From positions 1-44,167 of IMG/VR virus record IMGVR_UViG_3300037423_000772: a stretch of DNA of 44,167 nucleotides, one strand, 5' to 3'. This document shows, in pieces, positions 6,153 through 44,167 of the stretch. Each line of letters opens with the position of its first letter. Position 1 is the first letter of the stretch. The notes below the pieces were generated by a model that was not told where the DNA came from, searched no databases, and saw only the letters and a program-made list of their open reading frames with translations. The translations under genes were made by a program, and so were the position numbers. Origin of the DNA: a virus (taxonomy: Duplodnaviria > Caudoviricetes).

Positions 6153-6243
6153 TGAACCGCAAGATAGACGACGCCGCGCATTTGGCGCTCCTCATCCTCT
6201 GTCTCTGCTGCATCGCCTACGCCTCTTTTCTGTGGACCCGCCC

Positions 6244-6546: not shown

Positions 6547-6549
6547 GAT

Positions 6550-6992: not shown

Positions 6993-7360
6993 GCGCTGCA
7001 GAACAACTCTGGCCCGAGGTCATGGACCTCAAGACGGCCGCCTCCTACCTGCGCGTGCATCCCGTCACCTTGCGCGAGTGGAAGCGCAAAAAGGAGGGGC
7101 CGCCCGGCCGCAAAATGGGTGGTTGCTGGCGGTTCCACAAACCCGCACTCGACGCTTATCTCGCAGGCAGCCCGAAGATCCCCGAATGGCCCGCACCCCG
7201 TACCGACTTGAGCCCCGCGGCAAGAAAGGCACCCTCTGGGTCCGCTTCACCGCGCCAGGCGGACGCCCGGTATTTAGAAGCTCTAGGACTACCGATCGCG
7301 CCCTTGCGTCCGAATGGGCGTCGAAGCTCCACGCCGAACACTACCGAGTCGCCCGACTAG
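6989..7360 (+). CDS. xis: Excisionase (HTH_17/MerR-like winged helix)
   Basis: MDLKTAASYLRVHPVTLREW...GRKMGGCWRFHKPALDAYL; directly upstream of and overlapping int. Confidence 0.85.
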   Translation: MSAAEQLWPEVMDLKTAASYLRVHPVTLREWKRKKEGPPGRKMGGCWRFHKPALDAYLAGSPKIPEWPAPRTDLSPAARKAPSGSASPRQADARYLEALGLPIAPLRPNGRRSSTPNTTESPD

Positions 7361-10886: not shown

Positions 10887-11662
10887 CAGTGCCCCGAGTC
10901 GGTTTGCAGTTCGGCGAAGGACTTGCCCGCCCCGGCGGCGTAGAGGTAGTCCCACTCCGAATCGGTCAGGAAGTCCGGAATGACGAACGCCTCATCGATG
11001 CGGCCGTCAAAGGCGTTGAGTACCGTGCTGGTGCTACTGTTGTAGTCGGCTCCGATCGAGATGCCGAGCGGCGACGTGGGCGCGGTATTGGCGGTCAGCG
11101 CCGTGCCCGCATAGGCCCAGGTGCCGTTGTTCACGCGCACGCGGACATGCACGCCGTTCTTGCGCTCGCCTTGCAGGAAGTAGGTGGTGCCAGTCGTCAC
11201 CGTGCTGGTCGGCGTCGAGGCGTCCACGAATGAGCTGGAGTTGTCGCCTGCACGCGCAATGACGGCCCCGGTGGACAGCATGAACAACTGCAACACGCGG
11301 TCAAAGCCGTTTTGCGTGTTGGTCTCGCCGACCATCAGCGGGACGACGTTGGCGATGCTGTCGGCGTTGACCCAGCACCCGATCGAATAGCTGGTGCTGT
11401 TCGCGGGCGTCCACGGCAGCGTCGTCGCGCGGAATAGCGCATTGGGCGTCACATCGAGGCCGTTGCCTTTCTTGAACGCCACGGCCGAGGTCGCGCCCGT
11501 GCCGATCTTCGACGCGGAGGTGCTGTTCTTCGCGCCCGTGATCGGACTGGTTGCCGATTCCAGCGTGAACCACTCGCCGTTCCCAAGCTTCGTCCAGATG
11601 GACGCGGCATCGGAGTTGGTGCCCGACCCCAACGCCGCCAGGATTTGTTGGAGGACGGTCAC
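10886..11662 (-). CDS. LamG/concanavalin-A-like lectin-fold tail protein
   Basis: YSIGCWVN, ISIGA and FDGRIDEAFV...LTDSEWDYLY motifs; GTG start overlaps the upstream stop. Confidence 0.75.
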   Translation of the reverse strand: MTVLQQILAALGSGTNSDAASIWTKLGNGEWFTLESATSPITGAKNSTSASKIGTGATSAVAFKKGNGLDVTPNALFRATTLPWTPANSTSYSIGCWVNADSIANVVPLMVGETNTQNGFDRVLQLFMLSTGAVIARAGDNSSSFVDASTPTSTVTTGTTYFLQGERKNGVHVRVRVNNGTWAYAGTALTANTAPTSPLGISIGADYNSSTSTVLNAFDGRIDEAFVIPDFLTDSEWDYLYAAGAGKSFAELQTDSGH

Positions 11663-12612
11663 GTCAGCCCCGTCCCCGAGATGATCCACTCGGTGCTGGT
11701 GAGCTTGATCGCCGTGGCGATGCCGTTGGCCGCCAGCGTGCGGCTGCCGGTCGTGCCCGCGCCCGCGAGACGCAGGGTGTCCGTCGTGATCGCGATGGTG
11801 ACGGTGCCGGCGCTGGCCTGATTGACGAAGGTGATTGCCGTCCCGATCGGGAACGCCACGGAGCTGTTCGCCGGAATGGTGAACGTGCGCGCGGTGGTGT
11901 CCGCCGAGGGGTGCAGGATGTGCTTGCCTGCATCCGCAGCAACGCACGTGTAGGCCGTGGACTGGCTGTTCTGCGGGATGTTGCGGAAGCCGCAGAGCCC
12001 GCCTGTCAAGCCGTCGCCTTGCAGGATCGCGGCAGCTTGCGCGGCGGTCAGGTCCTCGGGGTCGCCCGTGCCGGCGGTCGTGCGGCCCTTGAGCGTGCTG
12101 TTGGCCATGTCGGCGAGCTTGGCGTTCGTGATCGCGTTGTCCGCGACCGTCGCGCCCACGACCGGCGTGCCGTCCGCCTTCGTGTAGGTCAGGCATTTCC
12201 AGTTGCCCGAGCCTTCCGAGACAAACCGCGCGCTATCCCCCGCTGCGGCGGTGATGTTGGCCCCGCCCGGCAGGATCAGGCTGGTGGCGTTGTGCGTCAG
12301 CGTGGGCGTGCTGTCGAAGATGACGTGCCGCTCCACACCCGCCGCCGCCGTGCCGAGCGAGGTGATCGGCCCCGTGCTGCCGGTGATGTGCACGCTGTTC
12401 CCGGTCGCCGCCCCGAGGTCGATGCTGGCCGCCGATGCGATGCTGCTGCCGCGCGTGCCCTTGTAGAGATTGGCGATGGCCTGCGTGGTGGTGCCGCCGG
12501 TCTGCCCTGTCGTGGCCCCTCCGGTGCCGCTGCCTGCGTCGGCCGCGAGGATCTCGGTGCCGGCCAGCGTCAGCGGGCGGCTGGCATTGAGTTGAGTGGC
12601 GGTCTTGGACAT
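11659..12612 (-). CDS. Tail fibre protein
   Basis: Thr/Ala/Gly-rich; ITNAKLA segment; C-terminal TFTIPAN..VAFPIGT...WIISG fibre domain. Confidence 0.8.
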   Translation of the reverse strand: MSKTATQLNASRPLTLAGTEILAADAGSGTGGATTGQTGGTTTQAIANLYKGTRGSSIASAASIDLGAATGNSVHITGSTGPITSLGTAAAGVERHVIFDSTPTLTHNATSLILPGGANITAAAGDSARFVSEGSGNWKCLTYTKADGTPVVGATVADNAITNAKLADMANSTLKGRTTAGTGDPEDLTAAQAAAILQGDGLTGGLCGFRNIPQNSQSTAYTCVAADAGKHILHPSADTTARTFTIPANSSVAFPIGTAITFVNQASAGTVTIAITTDTLRLAGAGTTGSRTLAANGIATAIKLTSTEWIISGTGLT

Positions 12613-15600
12613 TTAGCTCAGTGCCTGCAAGTAGTCGCCGGCATCGGTCACGATGTTTTCGGCGAGATCGGTCACAAGGAAATCGGCCACCGGCACGCTG
12701 GTGAACTGCGGCCGGTACACGAAGGTCTGCGTCGGGTTTTTCGCGGGGACGGTCCCTCGGGACACGGCGCGGAAGGTCAGCGTCTGCCCCGCGAGCTGCA
12801 CGTCGAGCGGAAGGAACACCACCGCCTGGTCCAGCAGGCACCACGCATCGCCCGCGCTGTGCGACGCGACGGTGGACCCCAGCACGCCACGCGAGAGGTC
12901 CGACAAGTCGTAGGTCTTGACGCCCGTGTCGGTCGGCGTGGCGAACTGACAGACTTCGGACGTGTCGTCGGCGGTGATGGCAAACCGGTTGACGCCCGCC
13001 GCGACCTGCGTCGCGCTCGCACTGTCCAGTTCGTCGTCGTTATGCAACTGGATCGAGAGCGGCTCGCCCGACGTGCCGATGGCATCCGTGAGGACACCCA
13101 TTGCGGCGGGCTGGTACAGCGTCGCAACGACGACTTCTTGCCCGTCGATTTGCAGATAGATGTCCGCGCCCGCCCAACCGGCCAACACGCCGCAGGCCGC
13201 GAGATAGACGCCCGGCACCGTGTCGGTGGGCCGCAGGGACGGCAGATTGAGGACCTGAAGGATCGTCGGTCCGCGTAGCGAGCTGGGGGGCGGAGTCGGG
13301 GTGATGGTCTGCGAGCCGGCCGCCGTGGAGACGTAGGCGCTTGCGCGGTCACGCACCAGCTCCCACTTGCTTTCGCCATCGCCCAACTCGGAGCGCGACA
13401 ACCGCCACCGCTTCCCCAACTGCACGATGTCCGACGGCGTGTAGATCGAGTAGGCTTCGGGCACTTCGACCGTCTTGCGGCCCAAGGCTTCTTCCCACGC
13501 GACCTTGCCCATGATCTCGGCGGTCTGCGCGCATTCGTCGCGCGTCATCACCACCGCCGTCTGGAGCGATACTTCGCCCGTCGCCTTGACGTTCTCCGTG
13601 ACCCGCTCGAACGTTTGCTTGATGGGTTCGTAGTTCGCGTCCGGGTCGGGCGCGATCAGGTGCAGCTTGCGCGGGAACTCGACCTGCTGGGCGCGCGTTT
13701 CTTCCTCGTCGTCGCTCTGCAACAGGTCGTCATCGCTGAGAGTGACGGCCACGGCACCGCCGCGCGGGACGGCATGCAGCTTCGTGCCCACATCGCCGTT
13801 GTCGCCCCACTCCGGCAGGTCAAAGAACTTGACCTTCTGCAATTCGCGCAACGCATCGGCGGCGGCCATGACGTTAGCCAGCGCCAGCCCGCGCAGCTCG
13901 CGTCCCGCCAGCGCGGTGACGTCCAGCTCGGTGACCGTGCCCCGGTCGCAGATGTCCGCGACCACTTCATCCAGCGGCGCGAAGTTCGGCGAGACCGTAC
14001 CCAGGACCGTGGCGCATTGACAGGCTTGCGACGTGCCGCGCGGATAGGTGTTGACGCTGCCCAGCCCCGTGGCCGAGTACGTCATCCCCGCCGGCATCAA
14101 GCCAGCCTCGACCGCCGTCGTGTAGGCGTCGTCCCAATAGGCTTGCACGTCGTAATTCGGATCGCCGGATTCCAGCACCGGCCCGAGCGGGAACGCATTG
14201 ATCTTGGCCGTGCCCAGCGTCCCGCCGTCCAGACTGTGGTCCAGCGGCGCAAGCTGCTTGAATGTGCTGGTGACCGTCGTGCAGGTCTGGCTGTAGTCGC
14301 GGACTTCGCCGTTGACGATGTAGAAGCCCGGCGCATCCGGCACCGGCAACGCATCGGCTGGCGGGTTGTGGTAGCAGCCCGTGGACGGACGGCAGGCGAT
14401 GATGAAGCCCGAGTAGCCGTTCAGACCGCTCGCGTTGTACGTTGCGCCGTCGTAGCAGTTGAAGGTGACATCCGAGCCGCTCGGCCCGAGCGTGCCCTGT
14501 TGCAACGTGACATTGCGATGCAGGACGGTGCTACCCGTGCCGTTGCCGCGCACCACGGCGGCCCACACGGGCGTGGGGTAATAGCTGCACGCGCCCGAGC
14601 CGGCGCTGGTGCCGCCGGCCTCGTAGATGTACGCCGTGCCTTCGGCGGTGCTGCTGTAGCGGGAATAGACCAGCCCCAGCACGTAGCGGTCGTGCCAGTC
14701 GTGGCTGCCGGTGGTGATGTCCTCCCACGGCGCGATCGGCTGGGCCGGGTTGAACCCGCCCACGGAGGTGGTCCAGCCCATGAGCGTGGCGTCGTCCACG
14801 ACCGACACGGAGAACTTGGTCTCCGCATCGGCAATCGCCGTGGCCACGTCATCGCGCCAGGGAATCGCCGGGTTCGTGTAATCGTCGTTGAACCCCAGCG
14901 CGGCGTACTGATAGGTCACGCCGTTCTTGCGGGGATCGCGCGAGGTGGGCGCGTCCTGCTGCCACGGCGAGTAGCCGTCGAAGTCCAGCGGCTCGTATTC
15001 GGCGCTGGCGTTCGTCGTATCGGCGTCGCTGCACACTTCCCAGCGGAAGTTCGGGATCGAGCCCTGCCGATCCGTCACGTCCAGATTGGTCAGCACCGCG
15101 TAACAGGTGCCGCGATAGGCCGGCACATTGCCGACGCCGCCGCCGTACTCGGCCGGCAACGCCTCCAGCGACGGGTCGGGCAGTTGCGTTTCGCTGCCCG
15201 GATAGAACGTGAGGATGGACGCGAACTTGGTGTTGTTCGCGTGCATGGTGGCCATCCACCGCTGCCACGCTGTCAGGTCGGTGTCCGGCGGCGGCGCGCT
15301 GACGTCATAGACGAGCTTGTCGTCCATCCACACGCGGCGCAGTTGCATTTCGCCGCCCAGCGGTGCGGCTTCGCAGATGCGGATCGCGACCGTGCGCGAA
15401 TACGTATAGGTCTGCTGGACCGGGCCGCCCTTGCCGGAGCGTTCGCGGTGCTTGCTTTCGACCAGCGGGCCAACTTGGATCAGGTTGCCGGCGATGCAGG
15501 CCGTGCCGTAGACGATGGGGCGCGGCACGCCTTCCATTGAGGTCTGCGTTTGCGCGTCGGTGAGACGCGGGCCTTTGACGACATCGGGATCGACGTAGCC

Positions 15601-15702
15601 GCCAATGGCCGAGCCAATCATCCAGCCAATGGACGTGCCAACGCCGGGGATGAAGCTGCCAATGACCGCACCAATGACGCCGCCGATGGTTGAGCCGGAC
15701 AC
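12613..15702 (-). CDS. Central tail tip/host-specificity protein (gpJ/GTA megatron-like)
   Basis: Gly-rich hydrophobic N-terminus, PIVYG, VPAYRGTCY, IPNFRWEV and RGVLGS motifs; follows NlpC/P60. Confidence 0.85.
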   Translation of the reverse strand: MSGSTIGGVIGAVIGSFIPGVGTSIGWMIGSAIGGYVDPDVVKGPRLTDAQTQTSMEGVPRPIVYGTACIAGNLIQVGPLVESKHRERSGKGGPVQQTYTYSRTVAIRICEAAPLGGEMQLRRVWMDDKLVYDVSAPPPDTDLTAWQRWMATMHANNTKFASILTFYPGSETQLPDPSLEALPAEYGGGVGNVPAYRGTCYAVLTNLDVTDRQGSIPNFRWEVCSDADTTNASAEYEPLDFDGYSPWQQDAPTSRDPRKNGVTYQYAALGFNDDYTNPAIPWRDDVATAIADAETKFSVSVVDDATLMGWTTSVGGFNPAQPIAPWEDITTGSHDWHDRYVLGLVYSRYSSTAEGTAYIYEAGGTSAGSGACSYYPTPVWAAVVRGNGTGSTVLHRNVTLQQGTLGPSGSDVTFNCYDGATYNASGLNGYSGFIIACRPSTGCYHNPPADALPVPDAPGFYIVNGEVRDYSQTCTTVTSTFKQLAPLDHSLDGGTLGTAKINAFPLGPVLESGDPNYDVQAYWDDAYTTAVEAGLMPAGMTYSATGLGSVNTYPRGTSQACQCATVLGTVSPNFAPLDEVVADICDRGTVTELDVTALAGRELRGLALANVMAAADALRELQKVKFFDLPEWGDNGDVGTKLHAVPRGGAVAVTLSDDDLLQSDDEEETRAQQVEFPRKLHLIAPDPDANYEPIKQTFERVTENVKATGEVSLQTAVVMTRDECAQTAEIMGKVAWEEALGRKTVEVPEAYSIYTPSDIVQLGKRWRLSRSELGDGESKWELVRDRASAYVSTAAGSQTITPTPPPSSLRGPTILQVLNLPSLRPTDTVPGVYLAACGVLAGWAGADIYLQIDGQEVVVATLYQPAAMGVLTDAIGTSGEPLSIQLHNDDELDSASATQVAAGVNRFAITADDTSEVCQFATPTDTGVKTYDLSDLSRGVLGSTVASHSAGDAWCLLDQAVVFLPLDVQLAGQTLTFRAVSRGTVPAKNPTQTFVYRPQFTSVPVADFLVTDLAENIVTDAGDYLQALS

Positions 15703-16152
15703 TCAGGGCCTCCAGGCTTCGACGATGCGGCGCGGCCACGGGCCGGCGAGGCGGGTTTCGATGACGCGGTTGGCCTCCTTCAATGCGTGGATCAGCGCAA
15801 AGCCGCCGAGGTAGTAGTCCGCCAGAATCGCGACGTGGTTGAACAGATCGGTGCCGTTGTCCTGATGCCAGCGCATCAGCACGACATCGCCCGCCTGCCA
15901 GTCGGTGACCGGATCGCCGAAATGCGCGACCAGCACATCGCGCAAGCCATCGGCCACCGGATCGCGACCGTAGTGCGGGCGGTCGGCAATCTCCCGGCCC
16001 ACCGACTGCAAGCACACGCCCACCAGTCCGACGCAATCCAGCCCGCGCTCCGAGCGGCCGCGATGGCGGAACGGCGTGCCGAGCTTGGAACGCGCGCACT
16101 CGAGGAACCCCGTCCGCTCCGCAGCGGACAGTGGCGTCACCAGTCGGGTCAT
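15703..16152 (-). CDS. NlpC/P60 tail-associated peptidase (gpK/GTA-like)
   Basis: GTPFRHRGR..GLDCVGL, GDVVLM, HVAI and IHA motifs. Confidence 0.9.
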   Translation of the reverse strand: MTRLVTPLSAAERTGFLECARSKLGTPFRHRGRSERGLDCVGLVGVCLQSVGREIADRPHYGRDPVADGLRDVLVAHFGDPVTDWQAGDVVLMRWHQDNGTDLFNHVAILADYYLGGFALIHALKEANRVIETRLAGPWPRRIVEAWRP

Positions 16153-18236
16153 TAGGCGTAGGTGTTCGTGCCGACGCCCGCAGAGGACGTGCCGTTTTTG
16201 AGGATGATGTCGCGATCGGACACGCCGCTCATGCCGGTGATGTCCGTACTCGTCCGGGTTTGCACGCCGTTGCGGTAGTAGTTCTGCGAGAACGTGTTGC
16301 CGGTGATCGTGGGCGTGCCGCCGTTGTTTCCGACGATGCCGGTCGCGCTGTTGTGCTTGATCGTGTTGGCGGTGATCGCCACGCCCGACGCCGGGCCTTC
16401 GATGACCAGGCCGTTGGAGTAGTTGTCACGCAACGTGTTGGTCTTGATCGTGACGCCCGAGATCGTGCCCGCGCCGCCGCGCTGTTCGATGTTCACCGCG
16501 TACCGGTTGCAGTGGTGGATGTCGTTGTCGCGGATGACCGTCCCGTTGGCGACGTTCCCGGCCTCCGGCTCGATGTCGATGCCGCACATCGGCGAGGTGC
16601 CGTGGATCGTGCCGATATAGGAAATCTCGTTATTGAAGATTTCGACGCCGGAGGTCGCCCACACCAGCGAAATGCCCTGCCGGCGGGAATAGCTCAGGTT
16701 GCAGTTCCAGATCTTCACGTCCGAGCTGCCGGAACCGGAGTAGCCGCCGATCGAGATGCAATCGCCCACGCACTTGGTGATCGTGATGTCGTGGATGGAC
16801 ACCGCCGAGGAGCCGTAGCAGGCGATGCCGTGGCCCCATTCGGAGGTCGTGCCCGTCTGCGGGACGAAGGTGTCGAGATCGCCCAGCAGCGTGCCGCCGG
16901 TCACTTCCACGTTCGACTTGCCGCGAATCCGCAGGATGTAGTCGTGGTCCTGGGTGTTCGTCTTGGCCTTGAGCGTCGCGCCCGACGCCAGCGACAGCAG
17001 CATGTTGGAGCGCAGCTCCAGCCCGCCGCCGTCCGTGAGCGTGGTGGTATCGATCAGATAGGTGCCGGCCGGGACGATGACCGTGCCGCCATCGCCCGGC
17101 AGCGCGTCGATCTTCGACTGGATATGCGCCGTGGCATCGGTGATGCCGTCGCCATACGTGCTGGAGACCGTGAGAACGGTCGTACCGCGCGTGCGCGGGG
17201 GCGGCGTGGTGTCGGTGCCGCCCACGGGCGGCGGCGTGGAGGACGTGCCGCCATCGGGCACATAGGGCGGCGGATCGGTCGGCGTTTCCCCGGTGCCGGC
17301 AAAGGACGCGCCAATCGCCGCGCCGGGCGTCTGCAACTGCCCGCCTGCGCCTACCGGGATCCACGGCTCGCCCCGGAAGTGCAGCGTGCGCTGCGCGCCC
17401 CAGAACGTCTCGCAGGAATTGTGCCCGGTGTAGTGCTTCCCGCACTGCCGGCGGATGCGGTAGGTATCGCCGTCCGCGATGTCCGAGACGGTTGGAAACT
17501 TGAGCGAAACCACACCCGCCGCGAACGTATCGACTTCGATCTGCTGGCCGACGTTGTCGCCCGTCAGCCATTCCAGGAGACCAGGCGCGAAGTAGTCGTC
17601 GTCCTGCGTCAGCGAGGTGTCGGTAAAGACGCGGTCGGATTCGGACACCGACACGACGACGCCATCGACCCACTCGTCCGTCAGGTCGAACCCACAGGGA
17701 TAGCGCTCATCCCCGACCTGGGAGCCGAACTTGGCGCGGCAGGTCAGCGAGTCCAGCTCGACGATGGACTGCTTGAGGAGCTGGGCCAGCGAGCGCAGCT
17801 CCATCACCGTCAGGCCGCCGACCTTCTGGCGGACTTCGCCAATCCGCCCCCCGGCGATGACTTCGGCCCCTTGGGAATGGTCGGCGTAGTTGATCCGCAG
17901 CACGCAGAACTTCACGCCGTCCAGCGCACCAGAATCGATCTGCTGCTGGGTGATGCCCTCCAGCGGGAAGCCGGCCACGGGGAGCAGCGTGTTGGCTTCC
18001 GAGTTGTCCACGGACAGGTCCGAGGATGACTGATAGGCCATCATCTCCATGCCCGTGCGGGCCTTGAAGGTGATGCTGCCGATCGCCACGGACGGCGTGT
18101 AGGTCACGTCCGCATCCAGCAGGGTGAAGCCGCGATAGGTGGCATCCGCCAACGGCCCGACCAGCAGCAGGTCGGTCATCGTCGTGCTGGATTGCGCCTT
18201 GTGGGCCTGGAGCGCAATCGAGATGCTCTTACTCAC
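16152..18236 (-). CDS. Baseplate hub (DUF2163/BR0599-like) fused to a C-terminal right-handed beta-helix domain
   Basis: CRAKFG...C and C-x8-C...HFRGEPWIP hub motifs, then a P/T linker, then pectin-lyase-like repeats; probable GTG start at 18236. Confidence 0.85.
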   Translation of the reverse strand: MSKSISIALQAHKAQSSTTMTDLLLVGPLADATYRGFTLLDADVTYTPSVAIGSITFKARTGMEMMAYQSSSDLSVDNSEANTLLPVAGFPLEGITQQQIDSGALDGVKFCVLRINYADHSQGAEVIAGGRIGEVRQKVGGLTVMELRSLAQLLKQSIVELDSLTCRAKFGSQVGDERYPCGFDLTDEWVDGVVVSVSESDRVFTDTSLTQDDDYFAPGLLEWLTGDNVGQQIEVDTFAAGVVSLKFPTVSDIADGDTYRIRRQCGKHYTGHNSCETFWGAQRTLHFRGEPWIPVGAGGQLQTPGAAIGASFAGTGETPTDPPPYVPDGGTSSTPPPVGGTDTTPPPRTRGTTVLTVSSTYGDGITDATAHIQSKIDALPGDGGTVIVPAGTYLIDTTTLTDGGGLELRSNMLLSLASGATLKAKTNTQDHDYILRIRGKSNVEVTGGTLLGDLDTFVPQTGTTSEWGHGIACYGSSAVSIHDITITKCVGDCISIGGYSGSGSSDVKIWNCNLSYSRRQGISLVWATSGVEIFNNEISYIGTIHGTSPMCGIDIEPEAGNVANGTVIRDNDIHHCNRYAVNIEQRGGAGTISGVTIKTNTLRDNYSNGLVIEGPASGVAITANTIKHNSATGIVGNNGGTPTITGNTFSQNYYRNGVQTRTSTDITGMSGVSDRDIILKNGTSSAGVGTNTYA

Positions 18237-18819
18237 CGAACACCTCGACCAGCTCGCACACCACTTCGGCGATGTCGCGATGGGGAAGTACGAACTCGAT
18301 GTCGTCCGAGGCGAAGCGCACGGGGACGTTGAACTCACCCGTCCACGTCAGCGCACCGCCGGCCCATGCCGTGGATGGGGTAAACAGCCCCGTAGCCTCA
18401 TCCAGCGTGCCGGCTTTGGCCACGCCGTCCTCGTAGACGGTGACGGTCGAAGCCACCGGCTTGGTGATCGTGCGGGTGTAGGTCTCCGACCCATACGTGT
18501 AGGTCTTGACCAACTGCACGGCGGTGGAGCCCGACGGGGCCGTGCCGAGCGTTTGCGCGGTGACGCTGTAGTCGTTCCAGTCCTTGAACAGCCACGAATA
18601 GAGCGAACCACGGGCCGCATGCGCGAGGTTCAGCAGCTCCGCGCGCATGGCCGGCGTCCAGCCCGCGGTGCGAGCGGTATAGCGGCGCTTGGGATTGAGC
18701 CAGTTGGCGTTGCGGCGCTCGTAGCCGGTTTTCAGCTCACGTACGCGCGTCGAAAACGACACGACAGCCGAGAACCCCACCTCTGCCTTCGCGGAGAGGC
18801 GGGTCGCAATGATCGTCAT
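18229..18819 (-). CDS. Distal tail protein (DUF2460/GTA-like)
   Basis: GYERRNANW, ARG...FKDWNDY and GEFNVPVRFASD motifs; directly after the tape measure gene. Confidence 0.85.
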   Translation of the reverse strand: MTIIATRLSAKAEVGFSAVVSFSTRVRELKTGYERRNANWLNPKRRYTARTAGWTPAMRAELLNLAHAARGSLYSWLFKDWNDYSVTAQTLGTAPSGSTAVQLVKTYTYGSETYTRTITKPVASTVTVYEDGVAKAGTLDEATGLFTPSTAWAGGALTWTGEFNVPVRFASDDIEFVLPHRDIAEVVCELVEVFGE

Positions 18820-29379: not shown

Positions 29380-30702
29380 TCAGAGTCTCAGAGGCTCGAC
29401 CAGCGCAATGCGCTTGATGACCGGCCATTCCCGGTCAACGCAATAGCCAATCGCAGTGGTGATGTGTTGATACTGGTTCGACTGATCCTCTTGGAACGTC
29501 GAGCCTTCTTTGACCTGCACCGTGCTTAGGCCCTTGTGGCACCAAGGCGCAGTCGCCGGGTTGACGAACAGGCTGGTGTCGCCCGAGGCCGTCAGGATTT
29601 TGGCGCGCACCGCGTTCTGTCGGTCCTTGATGGCTGGAGCCGCAGGCTTCACCCGTCGCTCATACGTCCATCCGTGCGCCTTCAGCACGCCCTCGATGTC
29701 GGTGTAGTCCGAGGCGTGGCCGTGCTTCTCGCCCTGCCGACCGGCCGGGTCGCCGTAGATCAGGACGTGCTTGTTCTTGTGATCCTTGAACCTCTCGACA
29801 AACTCCAGCGCCGACTGCTTTGACACCGCACTGGTCAGCACGATCTCGTCCAGCAGGAACAGGCTATTGCCATTCCGCCGCACCCCGATGGCCGAGGACA
29901 GCGGCGTGAAGTTCTGGTCGTGCATCCACATGAGCTGCTCGTGCGGCTCGATATGGGCGTCCGTGATGTTGTGCTTGCCGTAGTCCTCGTAGATCCGGCC
30001 CGAAGCCGTCTCGAATGAGGCCTCGAACTCCTGCTTGAACTGCTTGGCGGACATCGCCCGCTTCATGGCCTCGATCACGTCGAGCGGCAGGATCTCTGCC
30101 GACTTCCAGTGAAAGACCTTGAAGTTTGGGTCTGCCCCCGTCTCGGCCTGCATGCACAGGTCGTAGTAGTGGTTCAGGCCATCGGGCACGCCCAGCAGCC
30201 AGCACCACGCCCGGTAGTCGGGGTCCAACGGATTGACCGTGTTCAGCGCCGGCAGGATGTTGGCTTCCCACGCATCCGCCTTGATGTCGGCGAACTCATC
30301 GATGCCGCCCCCCTTCCACGGGATGCCCTCGATGCGCTGCGGCTTGTCGAGTCCCACCACATGGATCTCGCTGCCGTTGGGCAGGTAGATGATCCGCTCC
30401 GATTCGGACGGACGCTTGGGATGCAGACTGGAGAGCGAGAACGCCTTCAGGTCATCCCAAAAGATTTTCTTGGCCTGATCGTGCGTTGGGGCTGCCGCGA
30501 AGTACGGCCCCGGAACCTTGTTGGCCTGCTTGACCAGGAACCGCTTGAACCGCTCCGTCTTGCCGCTGCGCCGCCCCGCCGGCACCAATGGGAAGCGCAC
30601 ACCGCTCGGCACCGCATCCACCAGCGCCAACTGCACCGGGTGATCCCGCAGCGCGTACCACCGCGCAAGCTGCCGATCCAGCAGCAGGTTGCCAGTTGTC
30701 AT
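29380..30702 (-). CDS. terL: Terminase large subunit
   Basis: Walker A AGRRSGKT, Walker B GGIDE, FKQEFEASF and a nuclease domain (HDQN, YGDPAG). Confidence 0.93.
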   Translation of the reverse strand: MTTGNLLLDRQLARWYALRDHPVQLALVDAVPSGVRFPLVPAGRRSGKTERFKRFLVKQANKVPGPYFAAAPTHDQAKKIFWDDLKAFSLSSLHPKRPSESERIIYLPNGSEIHVVGLDKPQRIEGIPWKGGGIDEFADIKADAWEANILPALNTVNPLDPDYRAWCWLLGVPDGLNHYYDLCMQAETGADPNFKVFHWKSAEILPLDVIEAMKRAMSAKQFKQEFEASFETASGRIYEDYGKHNITDAHIEPHEQLMWMHDQNFTPLSSAIGVRRNGNSLFLLDEIVLTSAVSKQSALEFVERFKDHKNKHVLIYGDPAGRQGEKHGHASDYTDIEGVLKAHGWTYERRVKPAAPAIKDRQNAVRAKILTASGDTSLFVNPATAPWCHKGLSTVQVKEGSTFQEDQSNQYQHITTAIGYCVDREWPVIKRIALVEPLRL

Positions 30703-31094
30703 CCGGGCAGCTTGGCGATCAGGTCCGACAGCACCTTGGGCAGTTCGCTGCCAGCACCACTACCCTCGCCATCCAGCCCGGCTAGCTTCGCCTTTCCCAT
30801 GGTGGCCGACACCATTGCAGCCCCTTGCTCGCGCTGCTTGGCCACCTGCCGGGCTTCCTCCAGTTCTGCAATCAGGCTGTTCACCGTCACCGCGTGGCGC
30901 TCTAGGACGCTATGGCGCAGTTCTGCGACCCTACCCGCGACCTCCCCGCTGGCAAGAAGCTCGGAGGCGCGCTTGGCGACCGTCTCGGGCTTCATGCCAT
31001 CGGCGTCATACGCCTGGCGGTATGCCTCGCTCGCGTTCCCCGTCTCGATATATTTCTGGCAGAACGCCTCTTGTTTGATCGTTAGGGCGGCCAT
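30699..31094 (-). CDS. terS: Terminase small subunit
   Basis: LTIKQEAFCQKYIETGNASEAYRQAY HTH motif. Confidence 0.92.
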   Translation of the reverse strand: MAALTIKQEAFCQKYIETGNASEAYRQAYDADGMKPETVAKRASELLASGEVAGRVAELRHSVLERHAVTVNSLIAELEEARQVAKQREQGAAMVSATMGKAKLAGLDGEGSGAGSELPKVLSDLIAKLPG

Positions 31095-31196
31095 CAGCCA
31101 CCTCCTCAGTGGCCCTCGGCCGAAATATCCTGTCCCACTCGCTCGTGAACTGCTCCTCGCTCACCTGCTTGGGGCGATGCGAGTAGAACTCCCGGC

Positions 31197-32228
31197 TCAT
31201 ACGTAGCTATTCGTCCCCACATCCAGCCCGCTCACGGACGTGGTGGTGGTGATCAGCAGATCGGCCTGAAACGTGGAGCTGTACCCCGTGCGGGTCACAT
31301 CGGGGTTGCGATCGCGGATGCTGTTGCGGGTGTAGTTCGGCCCGAAGCGGTTTCCGCTCACATGCAGGCCCTTACCCGACAACAGGCGCAAGCCGGTCGC
31401 CGAGTTCCAGCCAATCTGGTTGTTCAGGAACGACACGTTGCTGGCCCCGTTCACCACCGCGCCGTTGCTCTTGTTGATGCTGGCCAGATCCGTGCCGCCG
31501 ATCTGGCAGTTCTGCACCGTCACGCCGTCGATGATCCCGCCATCACTGCGTTGCAGGATGTTCACCCCGTACTTCGCATTGCCGGGGAATCGGCAGTTGT
31601 CGATCAGGACGTTCTTGCAGACCTGGCCCGGCTCCGGCTCGATGTCCACGCCACACTGCGGGCTCGTGCCGTTGGTGTAACTGAACTCTGAGTTCAGGAG
31701 CTTGACCGCCGCACCGTCCACGATGGAGCAGCCCTGGCGGCGGTTGTTCGTGGAGATGCAGTTCTCGATCACGACGTCGTCGGACGAGATGCAGATGCCG
31801 TCCCCGGTGCAGTTGGAGACCTTCAGGCCCGTCACCGTGCCGCGTCCGCCGCCATGCACCGCAAAGCCGTGGCCCCACTCGTGGGTCTGCTGACTCGTGG
31901 TCAGACCTGCGGTGACATAGCTGTGTGCGTAGCGGTCGCCGACAATCTCGCCGCCCACCACTTCCCAATCCCACGCCGCATTGCTGTCCAGCACGGCATA
32001 ACGGATCGCGCTGTTGGGGATGACCTTCAACGTCACGCCGGTCAGCACCAGGCGCACGCCATTGCGCAGCTTGATCGAGGCGTTGACGGCGTCGATCAGA
32101 TACTCGCCCGGCGCCACCACCACCGTCCCGCCATCGCTGGGCAGGCTGTTGATGGCTTTCTGGATGCTCGCCACGTTGGGCGAGAGGTCCACGGTCGTGC
32201 TGCCGATCTTCCGGCTGTAGTCGGTCAC
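31197..32228 (-). CDS. Free-standing right-handed parallel beta-helix protein (pectin-lyase-like, putative depolymerase)
   Basis: IQKAINSL..GGTVVVAPGEY cap and PbH1-like repeats; paralogous to the hub C-terminal domain; no signal peptide visible. Confidence 0.85.
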   Translation of the reverse strand: MTDYSRKIGSTTVDLSPNVASIQKAINSLPSDGGTVVVAPGEYLIDAVNASIKLRNGVRLVLTGVTLKVIPNSAIRYAVLDSNAAWDWEVVGGEIVGDRYAHSYVTAGLTTSQQTHEWGHGFAVHGGGRGTVTGLKVSNCTGDGICISSDDVVIENCISTNNRRQGCSIVDGAAVKLLNSEFSYTNGTSPQCGVDIEPEPGQVCKNVLIDNCRFPGNAKYGVNILQRSDGGIIDGVTVQNCQIGGTDLASINKSNGAVVNGASNVSFLNNQIGWNSATGLRLLSGKGLHVSGNRFGPNYTRNSIRDRNPDVTRTGYSSTFQADLLITTTTSVSGLDVGTNSYV

Positions 32229-32237
32229 TGCCTACTC

Positions 32238-32420
32238 CTACACCAGCGCGTCGCGCTCGTCCCAGCCGGCGGGGCATTCGGCCTCACGGGGCCATGCGCC
32301 GGGGCCGCGAAGGTATTCCCACACCCCGAACTCGTATCCGACTGACTGCACGCCGAAACGGGTGCGATCAGGGTTGTCCAAGTTCACAGGCTTCCCGTGC
32401 CAGTCGTAGTCTTTGTTCAC
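32238..32420 (-). CDS. Hypothetical protein
   Basis: GTGA-coupled to Rz. Confidence 0.5.
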   Translation of the reverse strand: MNKDYDWHGKPVNLDNPDRTRFGVQSVGYEFGVWEYLRGPGAWPREAECPAGWDERDALV

Positions 32421-32887
32421 TTGCGCTCGTCCTGCAACAGCTTTTGCAGCGCCCTTATTTTCTCGGCGTCGTCGTGGGCGGCTCCAATAACTCGTCCCGC
32501 GCTGTCTGCTCGCCGACTGGCGGCGTCATCAGCCGAGGATCCACCGGAGGCAGCATCGGACACGCGGCCGGCTTCGCAGCCTTGCCATAGCTTGCGCAGC
32601 TTGAGAGTCCCAGCACGGAGGCCATCAGCCACATGCTTAGCATCAGCTTCCGCATCGCGCTTTCCTTTCGCATACGCCTCGCCGGCTGCCACGTTGGCCG
32701 CAAGCAACTGGCGTTCTTTCTCTTGGACTGTTCGCAACGCCGCGGCTTCAGCCGTCTTATCTGCCAGCAGATGCTTGTCGAACTTAGCCTGCACTTTGGC
32801 CGCACCATGGCGATCGCCATGCGTCCACACGGCCAACAGCAGCGCCACGATGGCCGCCAGCTTGATCCACGGCCAATACGGGTTCAT
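32417..32887 (-). CDS. Rz: i-spanin (Rz-like)
   Basis: N-terminal TM, coiled coil, LRAGTLKLR and IRALQ motifs; contains a nested lipoprotein gene. Confidence 0.85.
   Translation of the reverse strand: MNPYWPWIKLAAIVALLLAVWTHGDRHGAAKVQAKFDKHLLADKTAEAAALRTVQEKERQLLAANVAAGEAYAKGKRDAEADAKHVADGLRAGTLKLRKLWQGCEAGRVSDAASGGSSADDAASRRADSAGRVIGAAHDDAEKIRALQKLLQDERK
32455..32655 (-). CDS. Rz1: o-spanin lipoprotein (Rz1-like), embedded in Rz
   Basis: AAGGA RBS, lipobox LSSC, Pro-rich CPMLPPVDPRLMTPP. Confidence 0.85.
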   Translation of the reverse strand: MRKLMLSMWLMASVLGLSSCASYGKAAKPAACPMLPPVDPRLMTPPVGEQTARDELLEPPTTTPRK

Positions 32888-33489
32888 TCGGTTGCGGCCC
32901 ATTGCTGCGCGGTGAAGGCCAGCGGGATTGAAAACGCCATACCCGACATCCCAATCGACACGGAGCCGGTATGCACTGCCACCAGCTCGCCGCTGTCGTT
33001 GAAGTAGCCCGACCCGCTATCCCCGCCGCCGGTGACCAGCTCAAACAGCATCAACGTGCATTTCTTGATGGTCAGCCCCGGGATGTCGGGACAGTCATCG
33101 AGGTTGTTGATGGCGGACAGCACGCCAACGCGGTACACGCTGCGCCAGTCGCCAGGGTTGCCCATCAGGCGCACGCGGTCGCCGATCAGCACCTTGCCCG
33201 GGGCCGCCCAATTCCTGAACGTCCGATTCACCCGCACCAGCGCGTGGTCGTGACCATCAAAGATCACATCCAGCGTCTTTGCCGGCTTGCCATCCACCCC
33301 GACAATGGGGCCGCCTTCGTAGATGCAATGGCCTGCCGTCACCAGCCAGTGGGCACTGACTGCTGTCGCCGAACAGGTGCCCAGCGGCATCTCGATGAAG
33401 TGAGCCACTTGCTGCACAGCAGAGAACCGCGGGGCTGAAACACACCCGCACCCCGTCAGCACCAGCGCCAGGAGTGCGGCCAGCTTCAT
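32884..33489 (-). CDS. Trypsin-like (S1) serine protease lipoprotein
   Basis: Lipobox LTGC; triad motifs VTAGHC, HDHALV and GGDSGSG; ATGA-coupled to Rz. Confidence 0.85.
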   Translation of the reverse strand: MKLAALLALVLTGCGCVSAPRFSAVQQVAHFIEMPLGTCSATAVSAHWLVTAGHCIYEGGPIVGVDGKPAKTLDVIFDGHDHALVRVNRTFRNWAAPGKVLIGDRVRLMGNPGDWRSVYRVGVLSAINNLDDCPDIPGLTIKKCTLMLFELVTGGGDSGSGYFNDSGELVAVHTGSVSIGMSGMAFSIPLAFTAQQWAATE

Positions 33490-33503
33490 TTGTCGTGCCC
33501 TCG

Positions 33504-33542
33504 AAAAAGATGCCAGCCCCTACGCGCGCACGTATGGCTGGC
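33504..33542 (-). terminator. Terminator-like hairpin just upstream of the protease gene
   Basis: GCCAGCC...GGCTGGC stem followed by ATCTTTTT. Confidence 0.6.
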
Positions 33543-33623
33543 GGCGGAGCCGACCCGCGAGGCAAAGGATGTGCCGAAGCACGGCCCGCGCCGTGACCCT
33601 GCGGCTAACTCAGGGCCAACTCT

Positions 33624-33740
33624 TTAACTTGCGATTGTCATCAACCACTGCGCGGCTGTGATGACGCCGCCGAGAAGCAACGCCGTGGCGATACTCCACT
33701 TGAATACCGTGAGCAGCGCGGCGCGCTTCTCGGGCGTCAT
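33624..33740 (-). CDS. 38-aa membrane peptide (MTPEKRAALLTVFKWSIATALLLGG...)
   Basis: Manual translation; ATGA-coupled; single TM segment. Confidence 0.5.
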   Translation of the reverse strand: MTPEKRAALLTVFKWSIATALLLGGVITAAQWLMTIAS

Positions 33741-33838
33741 GCGAACCACCCGTACAACGCGCCGCAGATGGCCACGGTCAGCGGATGGCGGGCGAACGGA
33801 GACACACGCGGCGCAACCAGCGGGCGAATCTCACTCAT
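33737..33838 (-). CDS. 33-aa peptide (MSEIRPLVAPR...AICGALYGWFA)
   Basis: Manual translation; fills the gap with overlapping start and stop codons. Confidence 0.4.
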   Translation of the reverse strand: MSEIRPLVAPRVSPFARHPLTVAICGALYGWFA

Positions 33839-34097
33839 CCGGCGTCCCACCCGGCTTGAGGTCGGCGGGGTCGATGTAGTCACCCACCGCCTTGCCGGTC
33901 ATCCAGCCGCCCGGCGCATCTTGCTTCGCGTATCCGGCGAGCATCCAAATGCCGTCGGGCAGCGTGGACCACTCGCCGATTCCCGCCCAATCCTCAGCCG
34001 CATAGGCGAGATCGAGCAGCCAGCGAGCGGCGCGGAACACCAGCATGCCGAGCTTGCGAAGCAGCCATGACACCACAGTCGCCGTCAGAACTTTCAT
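33831..34097 (-). CDS. Hypothetical protein after the endolysin
   Basis: ATGA-coupled to the endolysin; amphipathic N-terminus. Confidence 0.55.
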   Translation of the reverse strand: MKVLTATVVSWLLRKLGMLVFRAARWLLDLAYAAEDWAGIGEWSTLPDGIWMLAGYAKQDAPGGWMTGKAVGDYIDPADLKPGGTPDE

Positions 34098-34576
34098 GTT
34101 TCCCCCAAGCACAGCGCCCGCTCGGCCGCGCGGCGTCGCGTCAGGCCCAGCACTTCCCGGCCACCGGCACGATTCCAGCGCATGAGCTGTTCGCAATACG
34201 CTTCGGGCGGGTCGCCACGATTCACCATGCGGACCAGCGTCGAACCACAGGCCGCGCCCTTGCCCACGTTGTATTCCCACGAACCCAGCGCAATCCACAC
34301 GTTCTCGGGCAGGGGCCGGTGCACACAGGAGGCCAGCTCCGCCAGGTGCTTGGCCGCCTCGTTACGGTTCAGCGCATCGCACTCAGCCCGCGTGTAGTGA
34401 TCCTTGTGCGGCCCTTCCGTGATGCCTTGGCACCACGTCCAGACGCCCACGATGTCGCGGTAGGCGTCGAGACTGTTGCCCTCTATGGGGCGCAGGTAGT
34501 GCGTCAGTGCGCCCGCCAGCAGCGTTACCGCTGCGGCCGGGGCGATGAGGCGCTTACCCGCGCTTTGCAGCTTCAC
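34094..34576 (-). CDS. GH24 lysozyme, probable SAR endolysin
   Basis: E-x8-D-x5-T (EGNSLDAYRDIVGVWT), YNVG and GLTRRR motifs; Ala/Gly-rich N-terminal anchor. Confidence 0.92.
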   Translation of the reverse strand: MKLQSAGKRLIAPAAAVTLLAGALTHYLRPIEGNSLDAYRDIVGVWTWCQGITEGPHKDHYTRAECDALNRNEAAKHLAELASCVHRPLPENVWIALGSWEYNVGKGAACGSTLVRMVNRGDPPEAYCEQLMRWNRAGGREVLGLTRRRAAERALCLGET

Positions 34577-34748
34577 GCCGCCACTTCCAGATCAGGTAGC
34601 CGAGCTGGGCGATGACGTAGATGCACGTCGGGATTGCCACCAGCCACTGCGGGTCAATCGCTCCCAGCACCATGCCGGCCGTGATGCCCGCTGGCGGCGC
34701 AGCCTTCAGCGTCGCCGCGCCAATGTCGGCAGCCAGATCGTTGCTCAC
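34554..34748 (-). CDS. Holin (class II, pinholin candidate)
   Basis: Small hydrophobic protein with a basic C-tail; overlaps the endolysin start. Confidence 0.8.
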   Translation of the reverse strand: MSNDLAADIGAATLKAAPPAGITAGMVLGAIDPQWLVAIPTCIYVIAQLGYLIWKWRREAAKRG

Positions 34749-34777
34749 ACTCGCGCTTCCCCTGTTGGCGCAAGCGC

Positions 34778-34987
34778 CTAATTCACTGTCTTGTTGTCAG
34801 CCAGTTGTGCTTCGCACTCCCGCGCCATCTGACGCAGGATGGCCGGCAGCAACGGAAAGTTCTGGCCGGAGATGGCCCATTTCTCGCCGTCCCGGAAGAT
34901 CACGTTCGCGGGCACGTCGTTGTCGTGCAGCCATTCCGTGACCAGCTCAACGCGCTCAGCGGCGCTTACGTCGCGGCGCTTTGGCAC
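34778..34987 (-). CDS. Hypothetical protein
   Basis: GGAGG RBS; lies between the Ntn gene and the holin. Confidence 0.55.
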   Translation of the reverse strand: MPKRRDVSAAERVELVTEWLHDNDVPANVIFRDGEKWAISGQNFPLLPAILRQMARECEAQLADNKTVN

Positions 34988-35492
34988 TCTGAGCCTCCAC
35001 GGACCGCCTGGAATGCGTCACCGCCTCGGGATATTCATGGGGCTGCTGGACTTCCATGCTCTGCACGGGATCGCCGCACAGCACGTCCTGCTTCGTTACC
35101 TTCGCCACCGCTTCTATGGCCGACAGGCCCAAGCCCATCGCCATCATGGCGGCCTCTGAACCGCAGCCCACGGCGGCCACCTTGTCCCGCAACGGAAAGG
35201 CCGGGAACTCATCCTCCAGCAGCCAAAGCGAGCCATCTGGCTTCGCGATCAGAATGCTGGCCTCGCGGATACACGGCGGCCCCTGCATCCCGTCGGGCGC
35301 AGGGCGGTCGTCGCAATCACCACCTTCGGCCAAGTACCGCAGGCCCGAATAGGCGCGTGCCCACAAACCACAGCCCCCGGCCACGCCTCCATCCGGCAGA
35401 CGGATGATCTTCTGCGCGCGGCTCTGGCTGTTGTAGGACGAGAGCATCGTGTCCGCCGCCATCACCCCATCCTTGAAGGCGATGATCGTCAT
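34956..35492 (-). CDS. Proteasome-beta/HslV-like Ntn hydrolase
   Basis: M-T-IIA...MAADT, QKI, AVGCGS..AM.AM and D..CG motifs; AGGAG RBS before ATG 35492. Confidence 0.75.
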   Translation of the reverse strand: MTIIAFKDGVMAADTMLSSYNSQSRAQKIIRLPDGGVAGGCGLWARAYSGLRYLAEGGDCDDRPAPDGMQGPPCIREASILIAKPDGSLWLLEDEFPAFPLRDKVAAVGCGSEAAMMAMGLGLSAIEAVAKVTKQDVLCGDPVQSMEVQQPHEYPEAVTHSRRSVEAQSAKAPRRKRR

Positions 35493-35502
35493 GGCGGCTC
35501 CT

Positions 35503-35533
35503 GAAAGTAGCCCCACGCGCTTGCGCGGCTACT
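35503..35533 (-). terminator. tR'-like hairpin at the head of the late operon
   Basis: AGTAGCC...GGCTACT stem followed by TTC, downstream of the Q-like gene. Confidence 0.5.
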
Positions 35534-43499: not shown

Positions 43500-43714
43500 C
43501 AGTGACTAGAGTCGTTTCCCCACACATCAGGACGCAGCGATTCCAGCGTGACCGCGCCGAGCGTTTCTTCATGGATGCGCTTGGCGAGCGTGACGCTGGG
43601 TTGCCGGCCGTTATTGCGGACGGCGATCTGCCAGAGGTAGTTGGGGGTGATGCCCAGGCGGCTCGCCAACGCCTGACGGCTGCCGCCCGTCTTGAAGAAG
43701 GTCTGTAGGTCCAT
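43499..43714 (-). CDS. cro: Cro/YdaS-like repressor
   Basis: RQALASRLGITPNYLWQI...IHEET.GAVT..SLRPDVW; divergent from cI. Confidence 0.9.
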   Translation of the reverse strand: MDLQTFFKTGGSRQALASRLGITPNYLWQIAVRNNGRQPSVTLAKRIHEETLGAVTLESLRPDVWGNDSSH

Positions 43715-43801
43715 GCTTCAGACCATACCGAATGTAAGACTTGAGGTCAAGCCAAATGCTTGCCGCTTGTCGGAGGATCAGCGTCTTACATTTCGTGATA
43801 T
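43715..43801. promoter_or_regulatory. OR region: PR, candidate PRM and three 19-bp operators (43722-43740, 43757-43775, 43783-43801)
   Basis: On the - strand, TTGACC-N17-TATGGT ends 7 nt before the cro ATG. On the + strand, TACATT ends 7 nt before the cI ATG. Operators share the GTAAGAC/GTCTTAC half-site. Confidence 0.8.
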
Positions 43802-44167
43802 GAAACCCATCACCCAGATACGCCGCGAACGGCTGCGCGAGCTAGTCACCGAGGCCGGAACGCAGGCCGCTGTGGCTTTACGCATAGGGAAGGACAAGAA
43901 CCAGATTTATCAATGGCTCCTGTCTCCCGGCGTGGAGGGCGCACGCAATATCGGGTCGCGCTCGGCCACGCTTTTAGAGATGGCGTTCTCAAAACCACAA
44001 GGCTGGATGGACTCCGATCCTGAAGCCTTCGGGTCCGTGAATGAATCGCCGGCAAACTATGACTATCGGCAGTCTCGCGCCGCGCGACCCACCGCCTCCA
44101 TACTCGCCGAGGCGGTGAGGGTGCTAGACGTTGACGAGACCGTCAACGGCAAATATCCCCCGCTAAA
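43800..44167 (+). CDS. cI: CI-like immunity repressor, 5' part (continues through the origin to 202; about 166 aa)
   Basis: Manual translation MKPITQIRRERLRELVTEAGTQAAVALRIGKDKNQIYQWLL...RNIGSRSATLLEMAFSKPQGWMD is a typical phage-repressor HTH. It is divergent from cro and in frame with ORF 17..202. Confidence 0.85.
   Translation, partial: MKPITQIRRERLRELVTEAGTQAAVALRIGKDKNQIYQWLLSPGVEGARNIGSRSATLLEMAFSKPQGWMDSDPEAFGSVNESPANYDYRQSRAARPTASILAEAVRVLDVDETVNGKYPPL
44099..44167. repeat. Terminal direct repeat (circularisation overlap), right copy
   Basis: Identical to 1-69. Confidence 0.97.

Follow-up and report, generated by a model that had tools for sequence, protein, structure and literature searches.

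A free-standing, anchor-less beta-helix gene in the lysis-to-packaging interval of a temperate siphophage and its distant homologue in the tail hub

Why should a phage encode the same kind of beta-helix protein twice, once as a part of its tail and once as a separate product? The question is raised by the IMG/VR virus record IMGVR_UViG_3300037423_000772, the whole of which (44,167 bp, with direct terminal repeats and about 65% G+C) was analysed here and is referred to as the window. The phage is a temperate siphophage. On the minus strand at 31197–32228 it carries a free-standing gene with a GTG start, the product of which (P0001, 343 residues) is assigned to the beta-helix proteins by Pfam family PF13229, by an AlphaFold2 model and by structure matches. 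A homologous beta-helix domain forms the last ~345 residues of the tail hub and is encoded on the same strand at 16152–17195. The initial annotation of this DNA proposed either that the two are entry (tethered) and exit (soluble) versions of one enzyme or that the free copy is a silent donor for recombinational swapping of the tail domain. Our analysis rejects the second proposal. Of the first it does not support the idea of one enzyme in two versions, but a soluble exit enzyme is still the best reading. We suggest that the free protein may be a late-made, anchor-less polysaccharide-degrading enzyme, released at lysis and directed at a target unlike that of the hub enzyme, and we consider the chances of this reading to be roughly even.

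The kinship of the two proteins, first noticed from shared motifs, is borne out by pairwise alignment, which gives 38–41% identity over ~330 residues. BLASTP of P0001 against the open reading frame (ORF) of the hub (P0002) finds 128 identities in 340 positions (38%, E 3e-48), with residues 20–342 of the former paired with 404–727 of the latter. A six-frame search of the record returns the same pair at 41% identity (E 1e-45) among two matches in all, and no family member beyond the free gene and the hub domain. The Pfam Beta_helix profile PF13229 scores 61 bits with P0001 and 54 bits with the hub ORF (gathering cut-off 25.9). All five motif pairs that had been quoted are present in both translations, and the domain boundary placed at about 17190 is right, since the RTRGTT cap strand begins at 17195.

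The 15-mer CTCCGGCTCGATGTC does occur exactly at both places reported for it, 16563–16577 in the hub gene and 31632–31646 in the free gene; both copies are given on the plus strand, with DIEPE encoded on the minus strand in the free gene, and none is expected from 100 shuffles. The two genes have no longer exact run in common, and this one codes for a conserved D-I-E-P-E. The free gene and the hub domain are otherwise 52.9% identical in DNA over 984 codon-aligned nucleotides, with 50.9% at third positions. The match is therefore better explained by conservation of the protein, DIEPE being invariant, than by recent exchange. Third positions are saturated and the divergence is old. A recent duplication or gene conversion was considered and is unsupported, given the low nucleotide identity, the saturated third positions and a longest run of only 15 nucleotides.

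The position of the free gene (the slot) is conserved beyond the window. The gene is found at eight viral loci with 91–97% protein identity and at three more with 85%. All five long records (G000, G002, G006, G008 and G018) have a family member placed after the lysis genes and before the terminase genes terS and terL, with a spanin recognised directly upstream in four of them, G002 being the exception. In each of four relatives with annotated flanks the gene follows an endolysin, a trypsin-like protease and mostly a spanin, and precedes HNH, terS and terL genes. The position is kept even where the terminase belongs to another family (phrog_9, compared with phrog_2 in the window); the terS, terL, portal and capsid genes of the window have no match in the slot-bearing relatives at E 1e-5. 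Endolysins are 34–41% identical in these relatives (94% in one record), compared with 85–97% for the beta-helix gene. DNA similarity of 84–92% begins and ends at the gene ends or within ~50 nucleotides of them, apart from one record in which it runs 80 nucleotides further downstream. The slot gene thus behaves as a gene-exact, exchangeable cassette. Mosaicism is general in these phages, since the window holds several other blocks of 84–96% nucleotide identity common to them.

The cassette is maintained as a coding sequence. For six intact alleles the ratio of nonsynonymous to synonymous substitution (dN/dS) is 0.05–0.23 in all 15 pairs, with dS of 0.32–0.63, which indicates purifying selection and speaks against a recent pseudogene or a silent cassette. 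A second type of slot allele, type B (P0214 in G008 and P0365 in G018), occurs in two further complete records and is 35–45% identical to type A. These two genes lie at L118:10775–11899 and L154:5182–6411, respectively, share a coiled coil of the form TKDLLAQ...ALDAER... and are 48% identical to one another. In the fragmentary records G009–G017 and G019 a hub-type copy alone was found, and these records are uninformative on the slot. Seven more distant phages with a hub of the gene-transfer-agent (GTA) type (G020–G026, 25–71% complete) have no family member at E 1e-5, so that the slot gene is not universal for tails of this type.

The free protein is no closer to its own hub than to other hubs. 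P0001 is 42% identical to the hub domain of its own genome and 42–43% identical to those of G002, G006 and G008. The two loci are also discordant: the C-terminal hub domains of G002 and G008 are 99% identical and their slot alleles 35%, while G000 and G002 show 44% for the hub domains and 93% for the slot alleles, and G000 and G006 show 48% and 85%. Exchange at the two loci is therefore separate, which argues against a matched entry/exit pair of one enzyme. With about 40% identity, saturated synonymous sites, an own hub no closer than those of other phages and independent assortment, that proposal is not supported. The pattern suggests two specificities, a variable one borne by the hub and a more widely shared one borne by the slot.

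A quick maximum-likelihood IQ-TREE tree of 110 domains places all 17 hub domains in one starred clade of 22 rows [Shimodaira–Hasegawa-like approximate likelihood ratio test (SH-aLRT) 98], the other five rows being three long non-hub proteins and two short proteins. Outside this clade stand the free type A proteins, as a group of their own (100, starred). Both lie within a phage-type clade of 36 signal-less rows (91, not starred), which otherwise consists of short proteins without a signal and of proteins in which a coiled coil at the N-terminus is combined with a Pro/Thr linker. The sister of the phage-type clade is a Lysobacteraceae clade (SH-aLRT of the joint clade 92, not starred). Joining the four type A rows with the hub domain of the window, a group named after the tree had been seen, is not rejected by the approximately unbiased test (delta lnL 34.2, p 0.185), and an old duplication within the phage lineage is thus compatible with the tree. 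The identity values show, however, that the split between free and hub forms is not a recent one.

We then have to consider when the free protein would be made. The minus-strand late operon runs in the order holin (34554–34748), endolysin (Phage_lysozyme, 34094–34576), trypsin-like protease, Rz-like spanin (an i-spanin, 32417–32902), a 60-residue ORF (32238–32420), the free beta-helix gene, a 64-residue ORF (31006–31200), terS (30699–31094) and terL. The placing of the gene between the spanin and terS thus holds, with the two small ORFs intervening. The stop codon of the spanin overlaps the GTG of the next ORF (GTGA), the stop codon of the beta-helix gene overlaps the ATG of the 64-residue ORF (ATGA), and a GGAG ribosome-binding site lies 6 nucleotides upstream of the beta-helix GTG. 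A consensus scan of 30500–35200 found no promoter-like and no terminator-like site. Because of these overlaps, the GGAG and the lack of such sites nearby, the gene looks like a member of the late operon, probably co-transcribed with its neighbours, and not like an autonomous moron. Of the small ORFs themselves, the 60-residue one has a 41% identical relative at the same position in G006 and G007. The ATGA that ends the beta-helix gene always starts a small ORF (in the window and in L018–L022 and L100), the sequence of which varies among phages; at least four versions are unrelated to each other, and one of them is a predicted membrane peptide.

What kind of protein is it? An AlphaFold2 model built from a 68-row family alignment confirms the expected fold: P0001 is confidently predicted as one right-handed beta-helix, with a predicted local distance difference test score (pLDDT) of 94.4 and a predicted template-modelling score (pTM) of 0.93. 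A structure search with this model gave Z scores of 24–37 to 50 beta-helix entries and covered model residues 10–343. Carbohydrate-active beta-helices lead the list: an alginate epimerase/lyase (8ja4_A; Z 37.0, root-mean-square deviation 1.8 Å, 289 residues aligned) comes first, followed by the AlgE4 A-module (2pyg_A; Z 35.6) and phi29 gp12 (Z 32.7), and then by GH28 enzymes and PL6 lyases as well as numerous phage tailspikes. When the PDB was searched by sequence profile, the crAss001 tail fibre gp22 ranked first (E 1.8e-43); it has the motifs EWG.G, NRRQG.S and GTSP..G.D.EP in common with P0001. A PDB sequence search with P0001 alone gave no match up to E 1, and an ESM Atlas search returned generic beta-helix clusters alone.

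Twelve columns are invariant in the 68 family members (Gly97, Glu117, Gly142, Asp143, Arg163, Arg164, Gly187, Pro190, Gly193, Asp195, Glu197 and Pro198 in P0001 numbering) and P0001 keeps all of them. The acidic residues and the arginine pair may be separated by roughly one turn of the helix, a spacing that would suit an active-site groove. The motifs of two specific classes were looked for, and neither set is present. AlgE-type mannuronan C5-epimerases have the catalytic motif YG[FI]DPH[DE]; P0001 has no DPH after any YG and reads KYGVNIL at its sole YG site. In GH28 polygalacturonases the motifs NTD, DD, GHG and RIK follow one another in this order; P0001 has GHG alone (in EWGHG, residues 117–121) and the order is different. 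The 'polygalacturonase' labels carried by JGI relatives are automatic names. We therefore go no further than to predict a polysaccharide-degrading protein of hydrolase, lyase or epimerase-like class.

The database holds 178 matches to P0001. The closest are 97, 85, 85 and (a fragment) 91% identical; next come two 334-residue proteins without a signal (47–48%) and then a large set of 354–398-residue proteins (40–46%), many of them named Lysobacter, Luteimonas or Xanthomonadaceae. The bacterial relatives have ~30–60 extra N-terminal residues, comprising an RR-x-F-L hydrophobic leader that ends A-x-A and then a PPTR.RGT cap strand; we read these leaders as putative twin-arginine-type signal peptides. 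P0001 starts ~19 residues before the cap helix, at a remnant of this cap strand, and is a single domain; as had been remarked, it has neither a signal peptide nor an anchor domain. No N-terminal particle-binding or adaptor domain and no fusion to a structural protein was found in it. The hub copy does have a particle attachment, by fusion to PF09931/PF09356. The nearest cellular homologues are from Lysobacteraceae and the terL DNA is 78% identical to that of Stenotrophomonas phages; on these two grounds the host is probably of Lysobacteraceae type.

A census of one-genome-per-species contigs located the family at 64 bacterial loci, all but one of them in Lysobacteraceae, Rhodanobacteraceae or unassigned Lysobacterales/Gammaproteobacteria genomes. 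Neighbouring genes were analysed for 44 of the 64, the other 20 being left out, and 43 of these 44 hold 73 members, often as several copies per genome or in tandem arrays. We counted as exopolysaccharide (EPS)-type neighbours the genes for Wzc, Wza, Wzx, GT4, GT2, an EpsG-like polymerase and an AsnB-like amidotransferase. At least one was present in 25 of the 44 loci and at least two in 22. These neighbours, of Wzx/Wzy-type clusters, are the main reason for thinking that the family acts on exopolysaccharide. Concerning the arrays, a contig of Vulcaniibacterium thermophilum (L044, ~1234–8169) has at least five tandem family genes, and two or three occur at many further loci of Lysobacteraceae and Rhodanobacteraceae, which is reminiscent of the multi-copy secreted AlgE epimerases of Azotobacter. 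A scan of metagenome contigs gave three family loci at 33–36% identity and no genomic surroundings for the relatives of 85% or 48% identity, and a viral scan with protein P0007 gave no match.

In the reading that we favour, the free protein would be made late, with the lysis and packaging genes, and would stay in the cytoplasm until lysis because it has no leader. Lysis by the holin, endolysin and spanin would then set it loose in soluble form to degrade matrix or capsular polysaccharide around the lysed cell and its neighbours, and removal of the glycan would free progeny and expose neighbouring cells. The hub-tethered domain, on its flexible Pro/Thr-rich linker, may act at adsorption on a different and more strain-specific glycan. 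P0001 appears to combine the features of the soluble, burst-released type of enzyme, namely a late gene, no export signal and relatives among host-type genes.

In support of this reading, we note that phiNIT1 PghP and LevP are described in a review as burst-released soluble enzymes thought to be derived from the host (PMC6966330). They are our working model, being non-structural, late-made, host-gene-like enzymes against host extracellular polymers. They differ in fold and substrate (one is a poly-gamma-glutamate (gamma-PGA) hydrolase, the other a levanase), in that phiNIT1 is not known to have a tethered homologue of the same family, and in that solubility is demonstrated for them and presumed for P0001 (PMC6966330). 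The depolymerase of TP-84, TP84_26, is reported to have soluble and virion-bound forms, of which the first pre-digests capsules and the second acts at entry (PMC10131341). There one gene supplies both forms; here there are two genes, of ancient divergence and independently assorting, so that the free and hub enzymes probably differ in substrate.

Several observations weigh against a soluble, depolymerising role. Firstly, the top structural matches are epimerases and lyases, and the chemistry need not be depolymerisation. Secondly, 19 of the 44 bacterial loci have no EPS neighbour. Thirdly, the type B alleles of G008 and G018 have an N-terminal coiled coil of 45–65 residues, which is typical of trimeric fibres and spikes, and the hub of G018 (337 residues) has no beta-helix, which leaves the slot gene as the sole family member of that phage. 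Furthermore, all long slot-bearing records have GTA-type baseplates, so that the tail context is less unrelated than the head and packaging context. Finally, a virion can be bound without an anchor: according to a preprint, TspA of the gene-transfer agent RcGTA uses its beta-helix body and its C-terminal domain to dock on a baseplate that is homologous to the present one (bioRxiv 10.64898/2026.07.19.739414).

In the main rival explanation the slot protein is a non-covalent and perhaps loose baseplate spike, the counterpart of TspA, that docks on the distal tail protein (Dit), the tail tube or the megatron and is partly shed in soluble form. We consider it possible, if doubtful. The tail tip is of the gene-transfer-agent type. 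Dit (DUF2460, 18229–18819, minus strand) is a homologue of RcGTA Rcc01695 (E 4.5e-17), and the hub core (PF09931 and PF09356, 17346–18179, minus strand) matches the 296-residue RcGTA hub 6tba_7A (E 4.6e-9), which is without a beta-helix domain. In the window a Pro/Thr/Gly-rich linker (17196–17345, minus strand), recognised from the translation and from alignment to the G002 hub, joins the core to the beta-helix domain. The hub probably starts at the ATG at 18179 (MTDLLL), and the database holds this 675-residue form (P0124). An NlpC/P60 tail peptidase (15703–16152) and a megatron-like host-specificity protein (Phage-tail_3 and Rcc01698_C, 12613–15702) follow on the same strand.

The fused hub is not peculiar to the window. 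PF09931, PF09356 and Beta_helix are combined in 17 protein clusters of 621–720 residues, that of the window included; their beta-helix parts are 38–52% identical to that of the window, and full-length forms occur at 15 viral loci. The fusion is thus a recurrent architecture. Between related phages the C-terminal hub domains are 41–54% identical and far more variable than the hub cores.

Two further results favour a docking protein. TspA is reported to be encoded away from the GTA structural cluster and to bind weakly to tail tube, Dit and megatron (bioRxiv 10.64898/2026.07.19.739414). Dit is 90–92% identical in G002, G006 and G008, compared with 32–62% for the hub core, the megatron, the body of the tape measure protein (TMP) and the tail tube, and could be a common socket. 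The coiled coils of the G008 and G018 alleles, and the slot gene as the only family member in G018, point the same way. Against docking, P0001 is a bare beta-helix of 343 residues without the N-terminal beta-sandwich, insertion domain and C-terminal domain of the 763-residue TspA, and its gene belongs to the lysis region, at a distance of 13 kb from the tail module. Nor does Dit conservation track the allele, since G008 has a Dit 91% and a slot allele 35% identical to those of the window; the Dit of G018 is only 64% identical. We also considered whether docking might show as joint conservation of Dit and the free gene; G002 and G006 agree with this and G008 contradicts it.

Around Dit, the segment 18106–19164 (minus strand), with Dit and the last 126 residues of the TMP, is a block of 83% nucleotide identity with G006. 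In G006 and G008 the TMP C-terminus is 83–84% identical and the rest of the TMP 32–37%, with 34–41% for the tail tube and 45–62% for the hub core. The C-terminus of the RcGTA TMP is placed at the baseplate centre in the preprint (bioRxiv 10.64898/2026.07.19.739414).

A variant of the docking explanation that we find rather unlikely is that the slot holds interchangeable, plug-in beta-helix enzymes that would dock weakly on the conserved Dit of GTA-type baseplates and then be shed in soluble, matrix-degrading form, each phage thus having a fixed hub enzyme and a swappable, detachable one of other specificity.

A moron or lysogenic-conversion role for the free gene, in which its product would be made from the prophage and act on the surface polysaccharide of the lysogen, for example to block superinfection or remodel EPS, is improbable. 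The phage is temperate, with integrase, excisionase-like and repressor-like genes; it has a second surface-modifying candidate, an Acyl_transf_3 O-acetyltransferase gene (8830–9786); and accessory genes classically occupy the interval from the lysis to the packaging genes. Unlike its bacterial relatives, however, P0001 has no signal peptide, so that the envelope of an intact cell would be out of its reach, its start and stop are coupled to late genes, and the consensus scan noted above revealed no promoter-like or terminator-like site. A role as silent or reserve copy, from which the hub domain would receive sequence by recombination, is hardly credible: the two copies are homologous and on the same strand of one genome, Erf-like and RecE-like recombination proteins are encoded, and the hub C-domains vary far more than the cores, but DNA identity is 52.9% with no exact run above 15 nucleotides, the ORF is intact in six of six alleles and has a ribosome-binding site, the dN/dS values show that the protein itself is selected, all 12 invariant residues are kept, and none of the four hub domains compared exceeds 43% identity with the type A free protein, which leaves no chimeric allele among them.

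Neither the fold nor tail-borne depolymerases nor soluble phage enzymes are new. Phage depolymerases have mostly been studied as tail-anchored spikes, and dedicated soluble ones are rare. Several known systems resemble parts of the present one. crAss001 gp22 (7qoj) and the phi29 pre-neck appendage gp12 (3gq7) have the same fold as P0001, and gp22 also the same sequence motifs; they are virion-borne, like the hub-fused copy. The free protein differs from both in having no N-terminal attachment domain, C-terminal domain or intramolecular chaperone, and in the position of its gene between lysis and packaging genes. The A-modules of AlgE type (2pyg and 8ja4) are closest in overall structure (Z 35.6–37.0, root-mean-square deviation 1.8 Å, 288–289 residues) and similar in size, each a single-domain secreted enzyme of acidic polysaccharides; P0001 is 17–18% identical to them and has no Ca-binding R-modules. 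The beta-helix proteins of Lysobacteraceae and Rhodanobacteraceae are 40–48% identical to P0001 along its full length, have the same invariant residues, often lie within Wzx/Wzc EPS clusters and are the sister group of the phage-type clade. They differ in their RR-type leaders and in being chromosomal, multi-copy and often tandem.

RcGTA TspA provides the other close parallel, as a separately encoded beta-helix enzyme that serves a particle whose baseplate of Dit, hub and megatron is homologous; the enzyme is described as partly soluble and matrix-degrading. TspA is a four-domain trimer of 763 residues per chain with no detectable sequence relation to the single domain of P0001, in which the TspA architecture (beta-sandwich, beta-helix with insertion domain, C-terminal barrel) was not found. 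The preprint reports no TspA homologues in phages and states that no soluble biofilm depolymerase is known to be encoded by a phage (bioRxiv 10.64898/2026.07.19.739414). A literature search, which was not exhaustive, found no earlier description of two such loci in a phage with a GTA-type tail, of a slot for exchangeable anchor-less beta-helix genes in the interval from lysis to packaging genes, of the independence of this slot from a hub-fused domain or of a sister group formed by leader-bearing enzymes from bacterial EPS clusters.

What we describe is a natural two-locus system, apparently of Lysobacteraceae-type hosts, in a phage group known from metagenomes only. A soluble free protein would be a clear example of an enzyme for release or for clearing the matrix; a docking one would extend the idea of a detachable spike from GTAs to phages. 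The link to signal-bearing enzymes of EPS clusters suggests a source from which phages acquire such enzymes and also the targets of these.

The remaining genes of the window are arranged as follows. After terL come portal, MuF-like, scaffold and capsid genes, connectors, tail tube, chaperone and tape measure; the tail tip continues with the DUF2460 distal tail protein, the hub, the NlpC/P60 peptidase, the megatron-like protein and three ORFs without family matches. These last three (9729–12612, minus strand; 317, 436 and 408 residues, partly overlapping) have no Pfam or PHROG match and are candidate tail fibres; the first of them is 64–66% identical in G002, G006 and G008. Integration, recombination and repressor genes lie on the plus strand or at the ends of the record, among them the integrase (7078–8262), the excisionase-like gene (6989–7360) and the repressor-like gene (43692–44165), and the record includes the Erf-like and RecE-like recombination genes mentioned above. 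The Acyl_transf_3 gene (plus strand; O-antigen acetylase-like, phrog_6705) lies between the tail genes and the integrase and is a candidate lysogenic-conversion gene acting on surface polysaccharide; relatives (37–42%) occupy the same position in G002, G006 and G008.

Two peptidase-like genes accompany the lysis cassette. The trypsin-like serine protease (PF13365, phrog_9683; 32884–33489, minus strand) lies within it, in the interval between endolysin and spanin, and has relatives of 36–43% identity at the same position in G004, G005, G006, G007 and G008. Directly upstream of the holin is an HslV-family peptidase-like gene (phrog_1040; 34956–35516, minus strand), with relatives (31–36%) in G001, G002, G003, G005, G006, G007 and G008.

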